Sequence record: NC_054918.1
Source of the DNA: Escherichia phage vB_EcoM_G4498
Direction: 5' to 3' (one strand)
DNA: 64,000 bases
Position numbers and translations under genes: made by a program
The notes under the pieces: model-generated
What the model saw: the letters and a program-made list of their open reading frames with translations, nothing else
Databases searched by the model: none
What the model was told of the DNA's origin: nothing
Part shown: in pieces, positions 15,801 to 37,515 of the stretch
Layout: every line of letters starts with the position of its first letter
Numbering within the stretch: position 1 is the stretch's first letter

Positions 15801-16451
15801 TTATTTTTCCTTTCTTATGAAGTTTTCTATCATATGTCTATAGCAGATATTAGGATAACCTGCCTTGACAGCTATTTTATTAAATTTTGTGCGCTTAGGT
15901 CTATTATTATAAACCCATAATTCATAAAGCGCATCATAACTATTCCATATTTCTCCTCGCCTAGGATTTGGTAAACCATATCGAGGTGAATTTTTACCGC
16001 TAAATCTTCCTTTTCGGGCTTTACTCATATTAGCCTTGGCTTCATCGGATATAATTTTACCTTTATGAGCTAGACGCATTTTGGCTTTAGTTTCTTCTGG
16101 GGTCTTTTTGCCTTTAATCCATGACGGCTTGCCATATCTAGGATTATTTTCACCCGAGAAAAGAACAGAGTTTTGGATTTTAAGGGTTTCTATTAATCTA
16201 CTTGTTAATTTAACACCTTTATTATATCGCATTAAATTTACAGCATAATGCAATCCTCTCACATCTGGATATATTTTAGTTAATAATCTATGAGCTATAA
16301 AATGCTCACGCGCAGTTAACTCAACAAGATTGTTTTTGTCATCTGCTCCTCCTATACATCTAGGAATTATATGATGGCGTTCTTTATATCCGCCAAGATG
16401 CCGGCATTTAGCTTTTGTAATTAAAGCCGAGTAAATTTTTTGGTAATTCAC
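15801..16451 (-). CDS. HNH homing-endonuclease-like protein
   Basis: 216 aa; HHIIPRCIGGADDKNNLVELTAREHFIAH HNH motif; NUMOD-like GENNPRYGKP / GKNSPRYG repeats; GTG start with SD AAAGGA. Confidence 0.75.
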   Translation of the reverse strand: MNYQKIYSALITKAKCRHLGGYKERHHIIPRCIGGADDKNNLVELTAREHFIAHRLLTKIYPDVRGLHYAVNLMRYNKGVKLTSRLIETLKIQNSVLFSGENNPRYGKPSWIKGKKTPEETKAKMRLAHKGKIISDEAKANMSKARKGRFSGKNSPRYGLPNPRRGEIWNSYDALYELWVYNNRPKRTKFNKIAVKAGYPNICYRHMIENFIRKEK

Positions 16452-21132: not shown

Positions 21133-21501
21133 TTAAAAGAATTTAAATTTTTTCTTTGACCTTTTATTAAATGCATCTTGTAGTTGCATTGTAATACATT
21201 TTTCTACATGAGGAGCTAACTCAGCTTTTCTTTCTTGGTCAAGAACAGCAAAGTCCATTACAACCTTTCCATCAACCCAATCCAGTTTAGTTACATACAC
21301 TATATGTGTAGAACCATCTTCTAGTTTAATGACAATCTCCTGGATAACATTTTCCATAGCGGATTTAATTATCTTAAGAGACTCATTAAAAAGACGTTCT
21401 TTTCTTTCTTCTTCCCCCTCCGAAGAGGGGGATTCATCGATAATTTCTAGATCTAAATCTAAATCTAAATCATCTTTATTCATTAAATTCTTCCATATCA
21501 C
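21133..21501 (-). CDS. hypothetical acidic protein (gene 40 position)
   Basis: 122-aa ORF between uvsX and 41; contains DLDLDLDLE repeat; assignment by synteny only. Confidence 0.45.
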   Translation of the reverse strand: MIWKNLMNKDDLDLDLDLEIIDESPSSEGEEERKERLFNESLKIIKSAMENVIQEIVIKLEDGSTHIVYVTKLDWVDGKVVMDFAVLDQERKAELAPHVEKCITMQLQDAFNKRSKKKFKFF

Positions 21502-22657
21502 TTAACTGTTCGAGGTCAGTTTCTAAATCAGCAGCTGATTTACTTTTACTTTCTGGAGATTTAAATTTTTCAACCTTTGAGTTAATCAATTCATCAACTT
21601 CAGCTTCAACAATTTCATTGCTATCAATAGCACCTAACTGATAAGCACGTTTAATAGCATCTCGGAATGGTTGATGCTTAAATAAAGGACCCCAGAATGT
21701 AGTGCAGTTGGTATCTTTTGCACGCCAAGATTTTTCTTCGCGAATCATCTCACCGGTTTCTTCATCAAGAAATTCACGAGCATACCAACCGTTCTTAGGT
21801 TTTACCACGAATCCTAATTCTAGAGCCATATCTAACAATCCAGAATAAGGATCGATACCACCGTCAAATTTAACATCAATAAAGAATTTACTTTTTTCTT
21901 TAACGGTACGAGATTTTTCTACATTTAGAACAAATTGATACCCCTGAAGATCAGAACCATCTTTAATCTGGCGCTTACCGATAATGAATACGGTATCAGC
22001 TGAATACATTACGCCTGTACCACCTGTCATCACGGTTTTACTAAACATTTCAATTGTTTCAATTGTATGGTTAACCGCAACGCACGGAATATTTTTAATG
22101 CTAAAATAAGGAGTAACAATACGGAATAATGACTTCAGTGATTTAGCACGAGTCATATCTGCCACAGATTTTTCATTCAAGGCATCTTCCGTTTCTTTCT
22201 TAGAAGCCATATTACCGATTGAGTCGATGAATACAATAACCTTTTCACCACGCTCAATAGCTTCAAGCTGGTTCACCATATCAATTTTCAGTTGTTCAAC
22301 TGACTGAATCGGCGTATGAATTACTCGTTCCGGGTCAACTCCCATGGATCGCAAATAAGCTGGAGTAATACCAAATTCACTATCATAGAATAGACAAACC
22401 GCGTCAGGATATTTGTTCAAATATGCCGCAACCATAGTCAAAGACATATTTGATTTAAAGTGTTTAGAAGGCCCTGCGAAAATAGTTAAACCAGACTGCA
22501 TACCGCCATCAATCGCACCAGAAATAGCAATATTAAGCATTGGAATTTTTGTACGAATTACATCCTTTTCATTAAAGAATTTAGATGTAGTCAGTTCAGC
22601 AGTCATTTTAGAAGTGGAAGCTTTAATCAAACGGGATTTTAAATCTGCAATAGACAT
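21476..22657 (-). CDS. uvsX: UvsX RecA-like recombinase
   Basis: 393 aa; RecA-fold P-loop GPSKHFKS; size and position of T4 UvsX. Confidence 0.9.
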   Translation of the reverse strand: MSIADLKSRLIKASTSKMTAELTTSKFFNEKDVIRTKIPMLNIAISGAIDGGMQSGLTIFAGPSKHFKSNMSLTMVAAYLNKYPDAVCLFYDSEFGITPAYLRSMGVDPERVIHTPIQSVEQLKIDMVNQLEAIERGEKVIVFIDSIGNMASKKETEDALNEKSVADMTRAKSLKSLFRIVTPYFSIKNIPCVAVNHTIETIEMFSKTVMTGGTGVMYSADTVFIIGKRQIKDGSDLQGYQFVLNVEKSRTVKEKSKFFIDVKFDGGIDPYSGLLDMALELGFVVKPKNGWYAREFLDEETGEMIREEKSWRAKDTNCTTFWGPLFKHQPFRDAIKRAYQLGAIDSNEIVEAEVDELINSKVEKFKSPESKSKSAADLETDLEQLSDMEEFNE

Positions 22658-22735
22658 TCATTTTTTTCCATAGGCATCATTATATTTTCCTCACTGGTTA
22701 AAGATAGAGTAATTATAACACAATAAATTTAGGCA

Positions 22736-23578
22736 TTAATCAACTGCTATTGGATGAATAGCATTAAACTTATGAAATGCTTCTGATTTTTCTTTACGCG
22801 AAACGCACATGCGAAGAACCTTTAATGGCTCGTCTTCTTCACCCAACGATTTTCGTTTTTCAATATTAGAAGTTTTCCAACGAGCTTGCTCTGGAAACTC
22901 TCTATTGATTTGCTCAAGCGCTCTATTATGTTTAGAATTACTACGAATTGAACTGCACCCTCCAGGAGCTTGTGCTTTTCCAGATACAACCAGATATTTG
23001 AACAAGGCCAAATGCGGATAACCTTGATTAATTAAATTGAGAAATGCATACATATCTTCGCACAAATCAATTTTTCCATACCCAATTTGTTCTGTCGTAA
23101 GTTTTCCAAGGTCATACCATGTATTCGTGAATCCATATGAATTTTCACGATAATTACCCCAAGATGAAGTAATTTTAAAAATTGGTAGGCGAGCATGACC
23201 GTGATAATACCCACAATCCATGGCATCTTCGACGTATTGAATCAATTCATAGAACTGTTCACGAGTCAATTGATTGACTTTATCCACACAACGACGATCA
23301 TCTCTTTTTCGCATTGAACTCATACGAATAGTAGTATCATCGTCAATCATCCAGATTCGTTGACCTGCATACATATCAGTAATTGCTTTACGAGTACCGG
23401 CAATTCCATTAACATCATCAGGAATAGTTACAATTTTAGCTTTAGACCCATAGGCATCATAATAAGCTTTTTCTTCATGTTCACGTACTACGATATGAGG
23501 TTCATAATCAGTCGGAAACATATCAAGGGCAGAAACTGCCCCTACACGTTGATAGCTCGGAATTACGAATTGAATCAT
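22736..23578 (-). CDS. glycosyltransferase at the b-gt locus (GT-A-like, DxD); candidate b-glucosyl-HMC-a-glucosyltransferase
   Basis: 280 aa; WMIDDDTT DxD motif; unlike the 351-aa T4 b-gt. Confidence 0.55.
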   Translation of the reverse strand: MIQFVIPSYQRVGAVSALDMFPTDYEPHIVVREHEEKAYYDAYGSKAKIVTIPDDVNGIAGTRKAITDMYAGQRIWMIDDDTTIRMSSMRKRDDRRCVDKVNQLTREQFYELIQYVEDAMDCGYYHGHARLPIFKITSSWGNYRENSYGFTNTWYDLGKLTTEQIGYGKIDLCEDMYAFLNLINQGYPHLALFKYLVVSGKAQAPGGCSSIRSNSKHNRALEQINREFPEQARWKTSNIEKRKSLGEEDEPLKVLRMCVSRKEKSEAFHKFNAIHPIAVD

Positions 23579-24216
23579 TTAAGTGCCTTACATTTGTCAA
23601 AATGGTATCTTGTCATATTTGGCCCACGTCCTTTTAGTCCGCAATGCGGACATATTTTTTCTATCAAATTATGAGGTTTTCCTTTACGATTTTTAGACAT
23701 CGTTTCTTTAATTATTTTAGCTTTTTCTACGCCAAAAATTTCTTCATAAGTTTTACCAGAATTTTCCTTGGCTCGATTTATAATTCCATATGCCTGCTCA
23801 TTTTTACCATACATTGGATTACCTTCGCCTTTCATTCTTTTAGAATGATCAGGACGCTTGATTCCACGAAAGGCATTTCCGCACTTATATCTTTCTTCTG
23901 GAGATAGTTTTTTACCGTACATTCCATTTAATTTGCCTGGAAAACTTCCTCCCCATGCTTCATTCTTTAAATTATATGAATCCGGACAATTAGCAGCATC
24001 TAAACAAGTTAAAATAATTTCTTCAACCTGTCTAAACATTGGTCCTTCATATAATATTTCTTTATTAAAGGATTTTATTCCATATTTCTTTTTAGCATGT
24101 TGCCAAACTACACCCGAACCATCATAATTCGGGTTGTGACCATCATGACTTCCTATATACCACTTTTTAGTTTTAGGATGTTTATACTTATAAACATGCG
24201 GCACATTTACTTCCAT
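23575..24216 (-). CDS. GIY-YIG homing-endonuclease-like protein (Seg-like)
   Basis: 213 aa; N-terminal VYKYKHPKTKKWYIGS...YDGSG; NUMOD-like GKLNGMYGKK / GNPMYGK; C-terminal CPHCG...HFDKC zinc finger. Confidence 0.7.
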   Translation of the reverse strand: MEVNVPHVYKYKHPKTKKWYIGSHDGHNPNYDGSGVVWQHAKKKYGIKSFNKEILYEGPMFRQVEEIILTCLDAANCPDSYNLKNEAWGGSFPGKLNGMYGKKLSPEERYKCGNAFRGIKRPDHSKRMKGEGNPMYGKNEQAYGIINRAKENSGKTYEEIFGVEKAKIIKETMSKNRKGKPHNLIEKICPHCGLKGRGPNMTRYHFDKCKALK

Positions 24217-24947
24217 TTTCCAGTATAATCCTTTTTAGCAATATGAGTCTCACCGGTGTTCCACCAATGGTCAACTAAATAAAACTGATTTTCGTACACA
24301 TGAAGACTTCCAACGTTCCATATAATAGAACCTGCTTTATATTGCCGCGATGGGTCGCCTGCATTCAAATCAGATACTAATTTATCTAGTACGTATTTTT
24401 GCCAAGCATAATCATTACGATAGCCTGCCCAGCAATCATTGCTTCTCATGCTAACAACCGCATTGACTTTCTTATCACGAATCAGGTACTGTACTGTATT
24501 AGTACACATGAAATCTGACATACCATCTTTATTGTAGTCAAATTGCATGGATGGACGAGTATAAATCATGATACCACGCCGAGAATCAGGATTTTGACCA
24601 AGTTCAGCTAAACACATATCATACTGGGCATAGTTATCTTCTGACCAAATAGCCCAACCATAATTCGAGTTAATTTCGCCTTTAGAAGATGCTACCTGCT
24701 GCCAAATCTTTGGTGTTTCACCTGGAATATCTTTAACAAACAAGCTCTTAGATTTATACCATTCAAGTTCACGCTGAATGTATTCATCATTAAGAGCGCC
24801 AAAAATAAACGGTTCATCTGCTACAAATGATGCGCCAATAATTTCAATAGTTTTAACACCAGTTTTATCAACTACGAAATCTTTTTCTTTTAATGCAAGC
24901 CCCAAATGAAGACGGATTTCTTCAACTGTCATAGAGTCACTAATCAT
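24207..24947 (-). CDS. 42: dCMP hydroxymethylase
   Basis: 246 aa (T4 gp42 length); thymidylate-synthase-like fold. Confidence 0.85.
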   Translation of the reverse strand: MISDSMTVEEIRLHLGLALKEKDFVVDKTGVKTIEIIGASFVADEPFIFGALNDEYIQRELEWYKSKSLFVKDIPGETPKIWQQVASSKGEINSNYGWAIWSEDNYAQYDMCLAELGQNPDSRRGIMIYTRPSMQFDYNKDGMSDFMCTNTVQYLIRDKKVNAVVSMRSNDCWAGYRNDYAWQKYVLDKLVSDLNAGDPSRQYKAGSIIWNVGSLHVYENQFYLVDHWWNTGETHIAKKDYTGKWK

Positions 24948-25100
24948 TTAAACCTCAATTGATACATTCATATTTAACTTGTAACAGTAATAAACCCCAA
25001 CCTAAAATAATAGTTGGAATCATAAGAGGAACCGTTACACTATAGTATATACTTATTATAATCATCAAGATTAAAAGCAACACTGTTATAATTTTGCTTT

Positions 25101-25352
25101 TCATTCCTTCTCTCTGATGATAATTACCTGGTTTGGTTGTGCAGACTTTTTAGTTTCACCCGCAATTGACCAAATAAATGTAATAAACCAACCAATAATT
25201 GACCAGTTAAACAGTAAAGACGTGAAAAAGATTCCTACTGTCGATTTTGACCCACGCATCAAAGCAATAAACCATGGAAGCATGTATATAATAATAGCCA
25301 ACACGCCTGAAACTAAAACCATAAAAATTGAACCTGCTACTAAAGTTTCCAT
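25101..25352 (-). CDS. imm: Imm superinfection immunity membrane protein
   Basis: 83 aa with two hydrophobic helices; size and position of T4 Imm. Confidence 0.8.
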   Translation of the reverse strand: METLVAGSIFMVLVSGVLAIIIYMLPWFIALMRGSKSTVGIFFTSLLFNWSIIGWFITFIWSIAGETKKSAQPNQVIIIREKE

Positions 25353-32275: not shown

Positions 32276-32992
32276 ATGAATTATAAACTAATTTATGAAA
32301 AGTTAATCTCTAATGCTAAATCTCGAAAACTTGATTGCTATACTGAATCTCATCACATTATACCACGCTGTTTAAACGGTAGTGATGATGCTTCAAACTT
32401 AGTAGATTTAACGCCAGAAGAGCACTATGTAGCTCATCAACTTTTAGTAAAAATTTATCCTTCTGAACCAAAATTAGTCTATGCTGCTAACATGATGACA
32501 GTTTCCACGAAATACGCTAAACGCAACAATAAAACTTTCGGTTGGATTCGTCGTAAACTCTGGGAAATAGAAAAGAACAAAGAATTCTCCCAGGAGACAC
32601 GAAAGAAAATGTCTGATGCAGTAGCTAATAAAGCAAGACTAACTTGTCCTCATTGCGGTAAGTCTGGATTAAGCGGGAATATGAATCGTTGGCATTTTGA
32701 TAACTGTCCAAATCACCCTAATCCTAAAGTTAGACCACCATTGTCTAAAGAACACAGAAATAATATCTCAAACGGGCTTAAAGCAATCGTTCTTGAAGAA
32801 ACATCCTGCGAATTCTGTGGAATGATAGGCAAGAAATGCGTTATCGCAGCGCATAGAAATTTCTGCAAGAAAAATCCAAATGGACGCAAGAAAACTGAAA
32901 AGACTGGTACTTGCGTCCATTGTGGTAAAGTTACCACTTTCGGAAATTTATCAAGATGGCATAATGATAACTGTAAATATAAACCTAGCTAA
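32276..32992 (+). CDS. HNH homing-endonuclease-like protein, plus strand
   Basis: 238 aa; HHIIPRCLNGSDDASNLVDLTPEEHYVAH; repeated CxxCG...W-H-x-D-N-C zinc-finger modules; N-terminal ~70 aa paralogous to the 15801-16451 HNH protein. Confidence 0.75.
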   Translation: MNYKLIYEKLISNAKSRKLDCYTESHHIIPRCLNGSDDASNLVDLTPEEHYVAHQLLVKIYPSEPKLVYAANMMTVSTKYAKRNNKTFGWIRRKLWEIEKNKEFSQETRKKMSDAVANKARLTCPHCGKSGLSGNMNRWHFDNCPNHPNPKVRPPLSKEHRNNISNGLKAIVLEETSCEFCGMIGKKCVIAAHRNFCKKNPNGRKKTEKTGTCVHCGKVTTFGNLSRWHNDNCKYKPS

Positions 32993-36298: not shown

Positions 36299-36315
36299 AG
36301 GGCCGAAGCCCTTTA
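36298..36315 (-). terminator. terminator hairpin after a-gt
   Basis: AAAGGGC-cgaa-GCCCTTT with flanking U-run. Confidence 0.6.
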
Positions 36316-37515
36316 TTTTGTAATAATGTCAAACTGTTCTTTAAAACAGAAGCTTGAATCTTGGTGCTGATACAAAAATTCATATGCTTTTTCTCGCTCA
36401 CGGTCATAAAGAGCTCGGTCAGATGACAGTTCTTTAATACGTTCAAACGCTGATTCCATATCATTTTCATCAAACCAAATGATACCGCTATCATGCGAGG
36501 TCAAAGGAGTATTATCAACACGGAATTTTAAATTTTCGCCAGTAGATTTCCAAAATACCGGAATTGTTCCACATGCACCAAGCTCGAGATGAGTATATTC
36601 TAAAGAGCGCTGTAGATATTTTTTATCCAACTTACTCAACTGATAACCAAATCCGGATTTACTCATACGTTCAAGCATTTCGCTATTTACATAACGATCG
36701 AGAATTTGCGTTGGTAAATTAGGAGCAATTTTAATTTGGTCTACTTGATGAAGACGATAATACTCGTATGGAATTCCTTTTTCTTTAATAGGAATGAACG
36801 CTGGAGAACGTTCCAGACCTTCCATAATAGTACTTAGTCCTGCAGGTTTAAGATGTTTTTCGTGAAAATCAAACATCTGATAAAAACCTTTCCATGTAGT
36901 CGTACGACCAATCCAACGGTTGACATTCATGTTAATTTCAGAAACATCTTTCCAGTAGGTTGACCGAACCTTCGCAATATCCATAGGAGGCTGAAAGTTA
37001 TATACGGTCGGCGCTTCTTCAATATCATCAAACAGAGAAACAGTTTCTGGATACCATTCTTTCATCAGAACTTTATTAAAATCACCATTATCAGAATGGC
37101 TAAAAATAACATCAGCTCGACGAACAGTTTCTTCTAATCCCAAATTTCGACGCAAAGAAAGAGAAGAATGGTCATGTTGATAAACTACAACACGAACCGA
37201 AGGTTTAATGTTATCAATAATTTTTTTATAGTTATTAATAGTGTCTTCTTCAACTGAAGTAGCAGGAACTGAATTGATAATTAGAATATCACAATCATTT
37301 ACCAGCTTAAGTGTTTTATCGTATTCTTTTGCCAATAAAACCGGAATTGAAAATGATTTATAATCATGCGCACAGTTACGAGTAAATGATTTATCTTTGG
37401 CATAAACCAAAGTTACTTCATGACCATTTTTAATAAACCAATCACGTTGCTCGAGTGAGAATTTTGTTACACCACAACCTTCAAGACCTCGAGCCATAAA
37501 AATACATACTTTCAT
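36313..37515 (-). CDS. a-gt: DNA alpha-glucosyltransferase
   Basis: 400 aa (T4 a-gt length); N-terminus M-K/R-x-CIFMARGLEGCGVTKFSLEQRDWF as remembered. Confidence 0.85.
   Translation of the reverse strand: MKVCIFMARGLEGCGVTKFSLEQRDWFIKNGHEVTLVYAKDKSFTRNCAHDYKSFSIPVLLAKEYDKTLKLVNDCDILIINSVPATSVEEDTINNYKKIIDNIKPSVRVVVYQHDHSSLSLRRNLGLEETVRRADVIFSHSDNGDFNKVLMKEWYPETVSLFDDIEEAPTVYNFQPPMDIAKVRSTYWKDVSEINMNVNRWIGRTTTWKGFYQMFDFHEKHLKPAGLSTIMEGLERSPAFIPIKEKGIPYEYYRLHQVDQIKIAPNLPTQILDRYVNSEMLERMSKSGFGYQLSKLDKKYLQRSLEYTHLELGACGTIPVFWKSTGENLKFRVDNTPLTSHDSGIIWFDENDMESAFERIKELSSDRALYDREREKAYEFLYQHQDSSFCFKEQFDIITK

Follow-up and report, generated by a model that had tools for sequence, protein, structure and literature searches.

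A highly probable T2/T6-type glucosyl-DNA beta-glucosyltransferase gene between uvsX and gene 42 of Escherichia phage vB_EcoM_G4498

Results

Gene identity and genomic context

The 280-codon open reading frame at 22736..23578 (minus strand, ATG start) of Escherichia phage vB_EcoM_G4498 (NC_054918.1) very probably encodes the glucosyl-DNA beta-glucosyltransferase of the T2/T6 type, which makes gentiobiosyl-hydroxymethylcytosine (gentiobiosyl-hmC) downstream of the products of gene 42 and a-gt. The 64-kb stretch of DNA that was analysed is referred to here as the window. The gene, ba-gt (also ggt or TAGT; 22736..23578, minus strand), would thus specify a beta-glucosyl-HMC-alpha-glucosyltransferase of 280 aa with a GT-A fold, which we take to be EC 2.4.1.28.

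The locus is defined downstream by the uvsX recombinase gene (21476..22657, minus strand), recognized by its Pfam T4_UVSX_C and RecA domains and by synteny. On the other side is gene 42 (24207..24947, minus strand), encoding the dCMP hydroxymethylase of 246 aa that is the source of hydroxymethylcytosine; it belongs to the Pfam thymidylate synthase family and is syntenic with gene 42 in T4, T2, T6, and DalCa. A DNA alpha-glucosyltransferase gene, a-gt, is present at 36313..37515 (minus strand; 400 aa), as the earlier note had proposed, and is supported by Pfam PF11440 (E 1.5e-236) and by identity to the a-gt products of T2 (396/400) and T4 (364/400). All three enzymes of the T2/T6 pathway (gene 42, a-gt, and ba-gt) are therefore encoded in the window, without b-gt, and ba-gt lies between gene 42 and uvsX; the sole deviation in this context is a homing-endonuclease open reading frame. 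The earlier note had placed the 280-aa reading frame between uvsX and gene 42. The reading frame is present at the length given, but it shares the interval with this second, 213-aa endonuclease-like reading frame. Overall, the window is a Tequatrovirus mosaic, with a best match of approximately 97 % identity over 24 kb.

Comparison with the T2 gene product (AP018813) gives 276 identical residues out of 280 (99 %) and with that of T6 (NC_054907) 274 out of 280 (98 %). The PHROG 842 profile, 'beta-glucosyl-HMC-alpha-glucosyltransferase', matches with an E value of 2.8e-89 across profile positions 4-269 of 270, and Pfam PF20691 (TAGT, 'TET-associated glycosyltransferase') matches across positions 2-205 of 205 with a score of 38.1 bits, which exceeds its curated cut-off of 27.5. 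These four results establish the homology to the T2/T6 beta-alpha-glucosyltransferase for which the earlier note had suggested a search, and the ba-gt orthologue, the T2-type a-gt, and the absence of b-gt from the window agree with its proposal of a T2/T6-type rather than a T4 alpha/beta pattern. Homologues with E values down to 5e-188 place the reading frame far beyond chance. Similarities to ba-gt of T2 and T6 include the length of 280 aa, the gene 42/uvsX neighbourhood, the T2-type a-gt partner, and retention of all family-invariant residues; the arrangement differs in that gene 42 and ba-gt, which overlap directly in T2 and T6, are separated in the window by the endonuclease reading frame.

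By megablast, ba-gt is carried by approximately 477 phage records. Seven of the matching records, from six phages (DalCa, JK23, WL-3, PYps14T, PYps15T, and UAB_60), are 100 % identical to the window ba-gt at the DNA level, and 12 records are at least 99 % identical. A tblastn search matched 687 records, including homologues of approximately 65 % identity in T4-like phages of Klebsiella and Enterobacter. A scan of IMG/VR for related loci returned only five that were near-identical, a number too small to survey populations. Plus-strand reading frames of 70, 40, and 104 aa that overlap ba-gt were rejected as mechanical, being antisense to a strongly conserved gene.

Predicted fold and conserved motifs

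The AlphaFold2 model of the protein (mean pLDDT 92.3, pTM 0.90) has a single GT-A domain. Foldseek comparison with the PDB found WrtF, K4 chondroitin polymerase, RmlT, TarS, and TarP at E values of approximately 1e-6 and TM scores of approximately 0.5, and the best 50-60 structural matches listed per search are GT-A-type proteins (nucleotide-diphospho-sugar transferase fold). Both the single domain and these matches favour the suggestion in the earlier note of a GT-A-type glycosyltransferase, and the modelled protein is predicted to have this fold, with a DxD motif and intact family-invariant residues. The TAGT of T6 has likewise been modelled and placed in the GT-A superfamily as a sister of GT2 (PMC13216743). 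A sequence search of the PDB for a solved relative of ba-gt gave chance matches alone (E > 1).

For the family alignment, 51 members were gathered in two rounds of homologue searching, and 49 sequences (the window reading frame and 48 hits) were aligned. Only R11, R63, D79, D80, and D81 are invariant in all 49, and the window allele keeps every one of them. The aspartates lie in the motif WMIDDDTT, which the earlier note had picked out as DxD and which is located at residues 76-83 (23330..23353, minus strand), the DDD itself being residues 79-81 (23336..23344; codons GAC GAT GAT). In the AlphaFold2 model the DDD follows the beta-strand of residues 74-78, the canonical position of DxD in the GT-A fold. 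It would be expected to bind metal and the nucleotide-sugar, the roles of the individual residues and the dependence on metal being those predicted from the model. D175, conserved in 43 of the 49 sequences, is suggested as a candidate catalytic base. A further motif, IPSYQR, follows beta-strand 1 at residues 6-11 (23546..23563, minus strand), with I in 48/49, P in 46/49, Y in 43/49, and R in 49/49 sequences. From general knowledge of GT2 enzymes it resembles the 'IPxYN'-type nucleotide-binding loop and presumably also binds the nucleotide.

The enzyme is expected to be inverting because the established product is beta-linked and the donor is UDP-alpha-glucose; the fold alone does not fix the stereochemistry. 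Identity to cellular inverting GT-A enzymes of family GT2 (TarS and TarP of Staphylococcus aureus, K4 chondroitin polymerase of Escherichia coli, RmlT of Listeria monocytogenes, and SpsA of Bacillus subtilis) is only 8-16 %, and the acceptors differ, being polysaccharide, teichoic acid, or lipid in those enzymes and a sugar on duplex DNA for ba-gt. There was no Pfam GT2 match at E values up to 1 and none in the PDB sequence search. Judged from the model, the likeness to GT2 appears to be structural only, such that the protein would work like a GT2 enzyme but would not be filed as one.

Alternative identities

Two other identities were weighed. A diverged or truncated b-gt of the T4 type (GT-B fold, GT63) would account for the position, and for that alone, as T4 b-gt also occupies the uvsX-42 interval. 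This identity is so improbable that it can be set aside, being refuted by both sequence comparison and predicted fold. Between the window protein and T4 b-gt there is no similarity, the best BLASTP match having an E value of 2.2 over eight residues, and the lengths differ (280 against 351 aa), in keeping with the earlier description of a reading frame shorter than T4 b-gt and unlike it. Nor did T4 b-gt match anywhere in the 64-kb window by tblastn, and there is no Pfam b-gt match (GT63, PF09198) in ba-gt. The two-Rossmann-domain architecture of GT-B is not that of the model, which is GT-A, as are the best 50-60 structural matches listed per search. The same conclusion has been published for the TAGT of T6, and both a-gt and b-gt are described as GT-B enzymes (PMC13216743, in which PDB 1JG7 is cited as the structure of T4 b-gt).

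It is also very unlikely, although somewhat less so, that the protein is a TAGT-family enzyme with a donor sugar or acceptor other than those of the T2/T6 enzyme. PF20691 is diverse, many of its members occur without a-gt or b-gt, and their function is not uniform (PMC13216743); distant TAGTs, which share just 20-30 % identity and are found with b-gt or alone, may carry out other chemistry. Against this, the window protein is 98-99 % identical to the T2 and T6 enzymes, which leaves little room for a change of specificity, and it shares their synteny and a-gt partner. The T2/T6-type beta-glucosyltransferase is therefore the identity retained here.

Allelic variation in T2 and T6

The window protein has neither of two substitutions found in T2, R11H and P251S. 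Codon 11 (23546..23548) encodes Arg in the window, the residue invariant in 49/49 TAGT-family sequences, and His in T2. The R11H change is present in all eight T2-type records, comprising seven T2 entries and SV76, and a 55-mer megablast probe with the T2 codon 11 matches those eight records alone, the R11 version matching 129. It is tentatively proposed that the window enzyme is a fully active consensus ba-gt and that the T2 enzyme is a natural hypomorph through R11H, perhaps together with P251S; this is a possible reading, held with less than even confidence. If true, it could explain the long-known contrast between T2, with approximately 5 % gentiobiosyl-hmC, and T6 together with most wild Tequatroviruses, at approximately 65-72 %. 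How far the DNA is doubly glucosylated would then be readable from the ba-gt allele, and the window phage would be T6-like. A literature search found no published link between R11H in T2 and low gentiobiosylation.

Apparent lesions were also seen in T6 records. In AP018814/NC_054907, one Asp of the invariant DDD is missing (a 3-nt deletion), and in MH550421 codon 10 is an amber (CAG to TAG), with the coding sequence annotated from Met20. The window ba-gt has neither the one-Asp deletion (AP018814) nor the codon-10 amber (MH550421). Such lesions are odd in the phage that defines high gentiobiosylation, and in both T6 GenBank lineages they may reflect either mutation in particular stocks or errors of sequencing.

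Predicted extent of gentiobiosylation

Among phages in which the DNA has been measured, the alleles nearest to that of the window are those of Solly and EH2 (Durham group iv), which differ from the window protein by K46R and V50I; their hmC is approximately two-thirds gentiobiosyl and one-third unmodified hmC, with a trace of alpha-glucosyl (PMC13390438). Geo, EL, and BGP (Durham group iii) differ by K46R, M89I, R95K, C97R, V101I, A202S, and Q203H and have hmdC, alpha-glc-mdC, and gentiobiosyl-mdC in the ratio 1:2:2 (PMC13390438). These three phages share one distinct ba-gt allele alongside their intermediate ratio, and a-gt of Geo differs from a-gt of the window at 35 of 400 residues; either the distinct allele or the differences in Geo's a-gt could underlie 1:2:2. 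Because the window allele is intact at the invariant residues and is two conservative substitutions away from measured alleles, a T6-like or Solly-like composition, mostly gentiobiosyl, is predicted from the sequence with moderate confidence, rather than a T2-like one that is mostly mono-alpha-glucosyl. The ratio itself is not fixable from sequence, since the extent of gentiobiosylation varies widely among near-identical enzymes (5 % in T2, 72 % in T6, and approximately 40 % in Durham group iii; PMC6024577; PMC13390438).

The orthologue might instead act at a low, T2-like level, leaving the DNA mostly mono-alpha-glucosylated with a few per cent gentiobiosyl-hmC. T2 carries the gene and yet has only approximately 5 % gentiobiosyl-hmC, and the window protein is slightly nearer to that of T2 (276/280) than to that of T6 (274/280), as a-gt is also close to T2 (396/400). 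A low level is nevertheless unlikely. Of the four differences from T2, R11H falls on a residue invariant in 49/49 sequences, at which the window keeps Arg; P251S lies in a column with Pro in only 24/49, where the window again has the commonest residue. The codon-11 sequence of the T2 type occurs in records of T2 and SV76 alone, and the nearest measured alleles, those of Solly and EH2 with their two conservative differences, are associated with approximately two-thirds gentiobiosyl. A mostly gentiobiosyl composition thus remains the prediction for the window phage.

Homing endonucleases and other local features

The reading frame between gene 42 and ba-gt (23575..24216, minus strand; 213 aa) encodes a GIY-YIG (Seg-like) homing-endonuclease-like protein, matching PHROG 314 'homing endonuclease' at an E value of 2.3e-31, and tblastn relates its N-terminal part to SegA, a GIY-YIG endonuclease of T4 (E 8e-9). 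The TGA stop of this reading frame and the ba-gt start codon overlap in ATGA, and its first 10 nt lie within the end of gene 42. The product is outside the modification pathway. This endonuclease is present in 76 phage records, of the approximately 477 with ba-gt, and the features annotated under those 76 matches are nearly always gene 42 and/or a glucosyltransferase; between gene 42 and ba-gt it is absent in T2, T6, Geo, EL, and BGP. The position also differs from that of segA in T4, which sits between uvsX and b-gt rather than between gene 42 and the glucosyltransferase gene. Co-conversion of one ba-gt allele by the endonuclease does not hold as a strict rule: AV120 and EC.W15-4 carry the endonuclease, yet their ba-gt is just 98.0 % identical to that of the window.

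Partial tblastn matches to MobB of T4, an HNH homing endonuclease, were listed at 32276..32605 (plus strand; E 2e-26) and then at 16155..16451 (minus strand; E 1e-17), which suggests further homing-endonuclease genes or remnants in the window. Within codons 12-18 of ba-gt there is a 9-bp G+C-rich hairpin, TAGGGGCAGTTTCTGCCCTTG (23524..23544, minus strand), given in the DalCa record as a rho-independent terminator. When 22400..25200 was scanned with promoter and terminator consensus sequences, there were 14 matches against 12.5 in shuffled sequences and two against 1.3, respectively, and thus no enrichment and no expression signal.

Discussion

Proposed modification pathway

In the pathway proposed, the product of gene 42 would make hydroxymethyl-dCMP, to be built into phage DNA as hmC, and the GT-B enzyme a-gt would place alpha-glucose on approximately three-quarters of it. 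The ba-gt enzyme (GT-A, DxD, inverting) would then transfer glucose from UDP-glucose to the 6-OH of the alpha-glucose in a beta-1,6 linkage, giving gentiobiosyl-hmC. As b-gt was not found in the window and another gene takes up its usual place, the remaining hmC, approximately one-quarter to one-third, would be expected to stay bare, provided that the rest of the genome beyond the 64-kb window is also without b-gt. By analogy, the DNA of this phage probably has the same chemistry as that of T2/T6-type phages.

The orthologues in T2 and T6 add a second glucose, beta-1,6, to alpha-glucosyl-hmC; the resulting gentiobiosyl-hmC amounts to 72 % for T6 and 5 % for T2 (PMC6024577; PMC11078745). Deletion of ba-gt from T6 leaves only alpha-glucosyl-hmC, according to the authors, and raises sensitivity to Brig1 (PMC11078745), and the DNA of such a deletion mutant becomes a substrate of the deglucosylase BapA (bioRxiv 10.64898/2026.02.25.707755). 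In wild Tequatroviruses with a-gt and a TAGT at the site syntenic with T4 b-gt, HPLC/MS found hmdC, alpha-glc-mdC, and alpha-gentiobiosyl-mdC, and no beta-glucosyl form (PMC13390438).

The enzymes encoded by T4 b-gt and ba-gt have in common a UDP-glucose donor, a beta-linked product, and a shielding role on hmC DNA, and their genes share the uvsX-42 neighbourhood. They differ in acceptor, which is bare hmC for T4 b-gt and alpha-glucosyl-hmC for ba-gt. The action of b-gt allows full monoglucosylation of T4 DNA, whereas phages with a-gt and ba-gt leave approximately 25-33 % of hmC bare (bioRxiv 2026.02.25.707755; PMC13390438).

Significance

The gene, the GT-A fold, the pairing of a-gt with a TAGT, and the relevance to defence are already known from published work. 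In most phages encoding glucosyltransferases, a TAGT accompanies either a-gt or b-gt, and both a-gt and b-gt occur in only 6 of 753 genomes, those of T4 and its close relatives (PMC13216743). Within the genus, the combination of a-gt and TAGT seen in the window is the usual condition, from which T4 departs.

The cytosine sugar pattern of a T-even phage predicts its sensitivity to modification-dependent defences. Gentiobiosyl-hmC resists the glycosylase Brig1 in vitro and also the deglucosylase BapA, and hmC that stays bare when b-gt is missing is a target of the glycosylase Brig3; GmrSD/BrxU-type enzymes still cut DNA bearing these sugar modifications (PMC13390438; PMC13216743). Recognition of the pattern is of use in phage annotation and in the choice of therapeutic phages.
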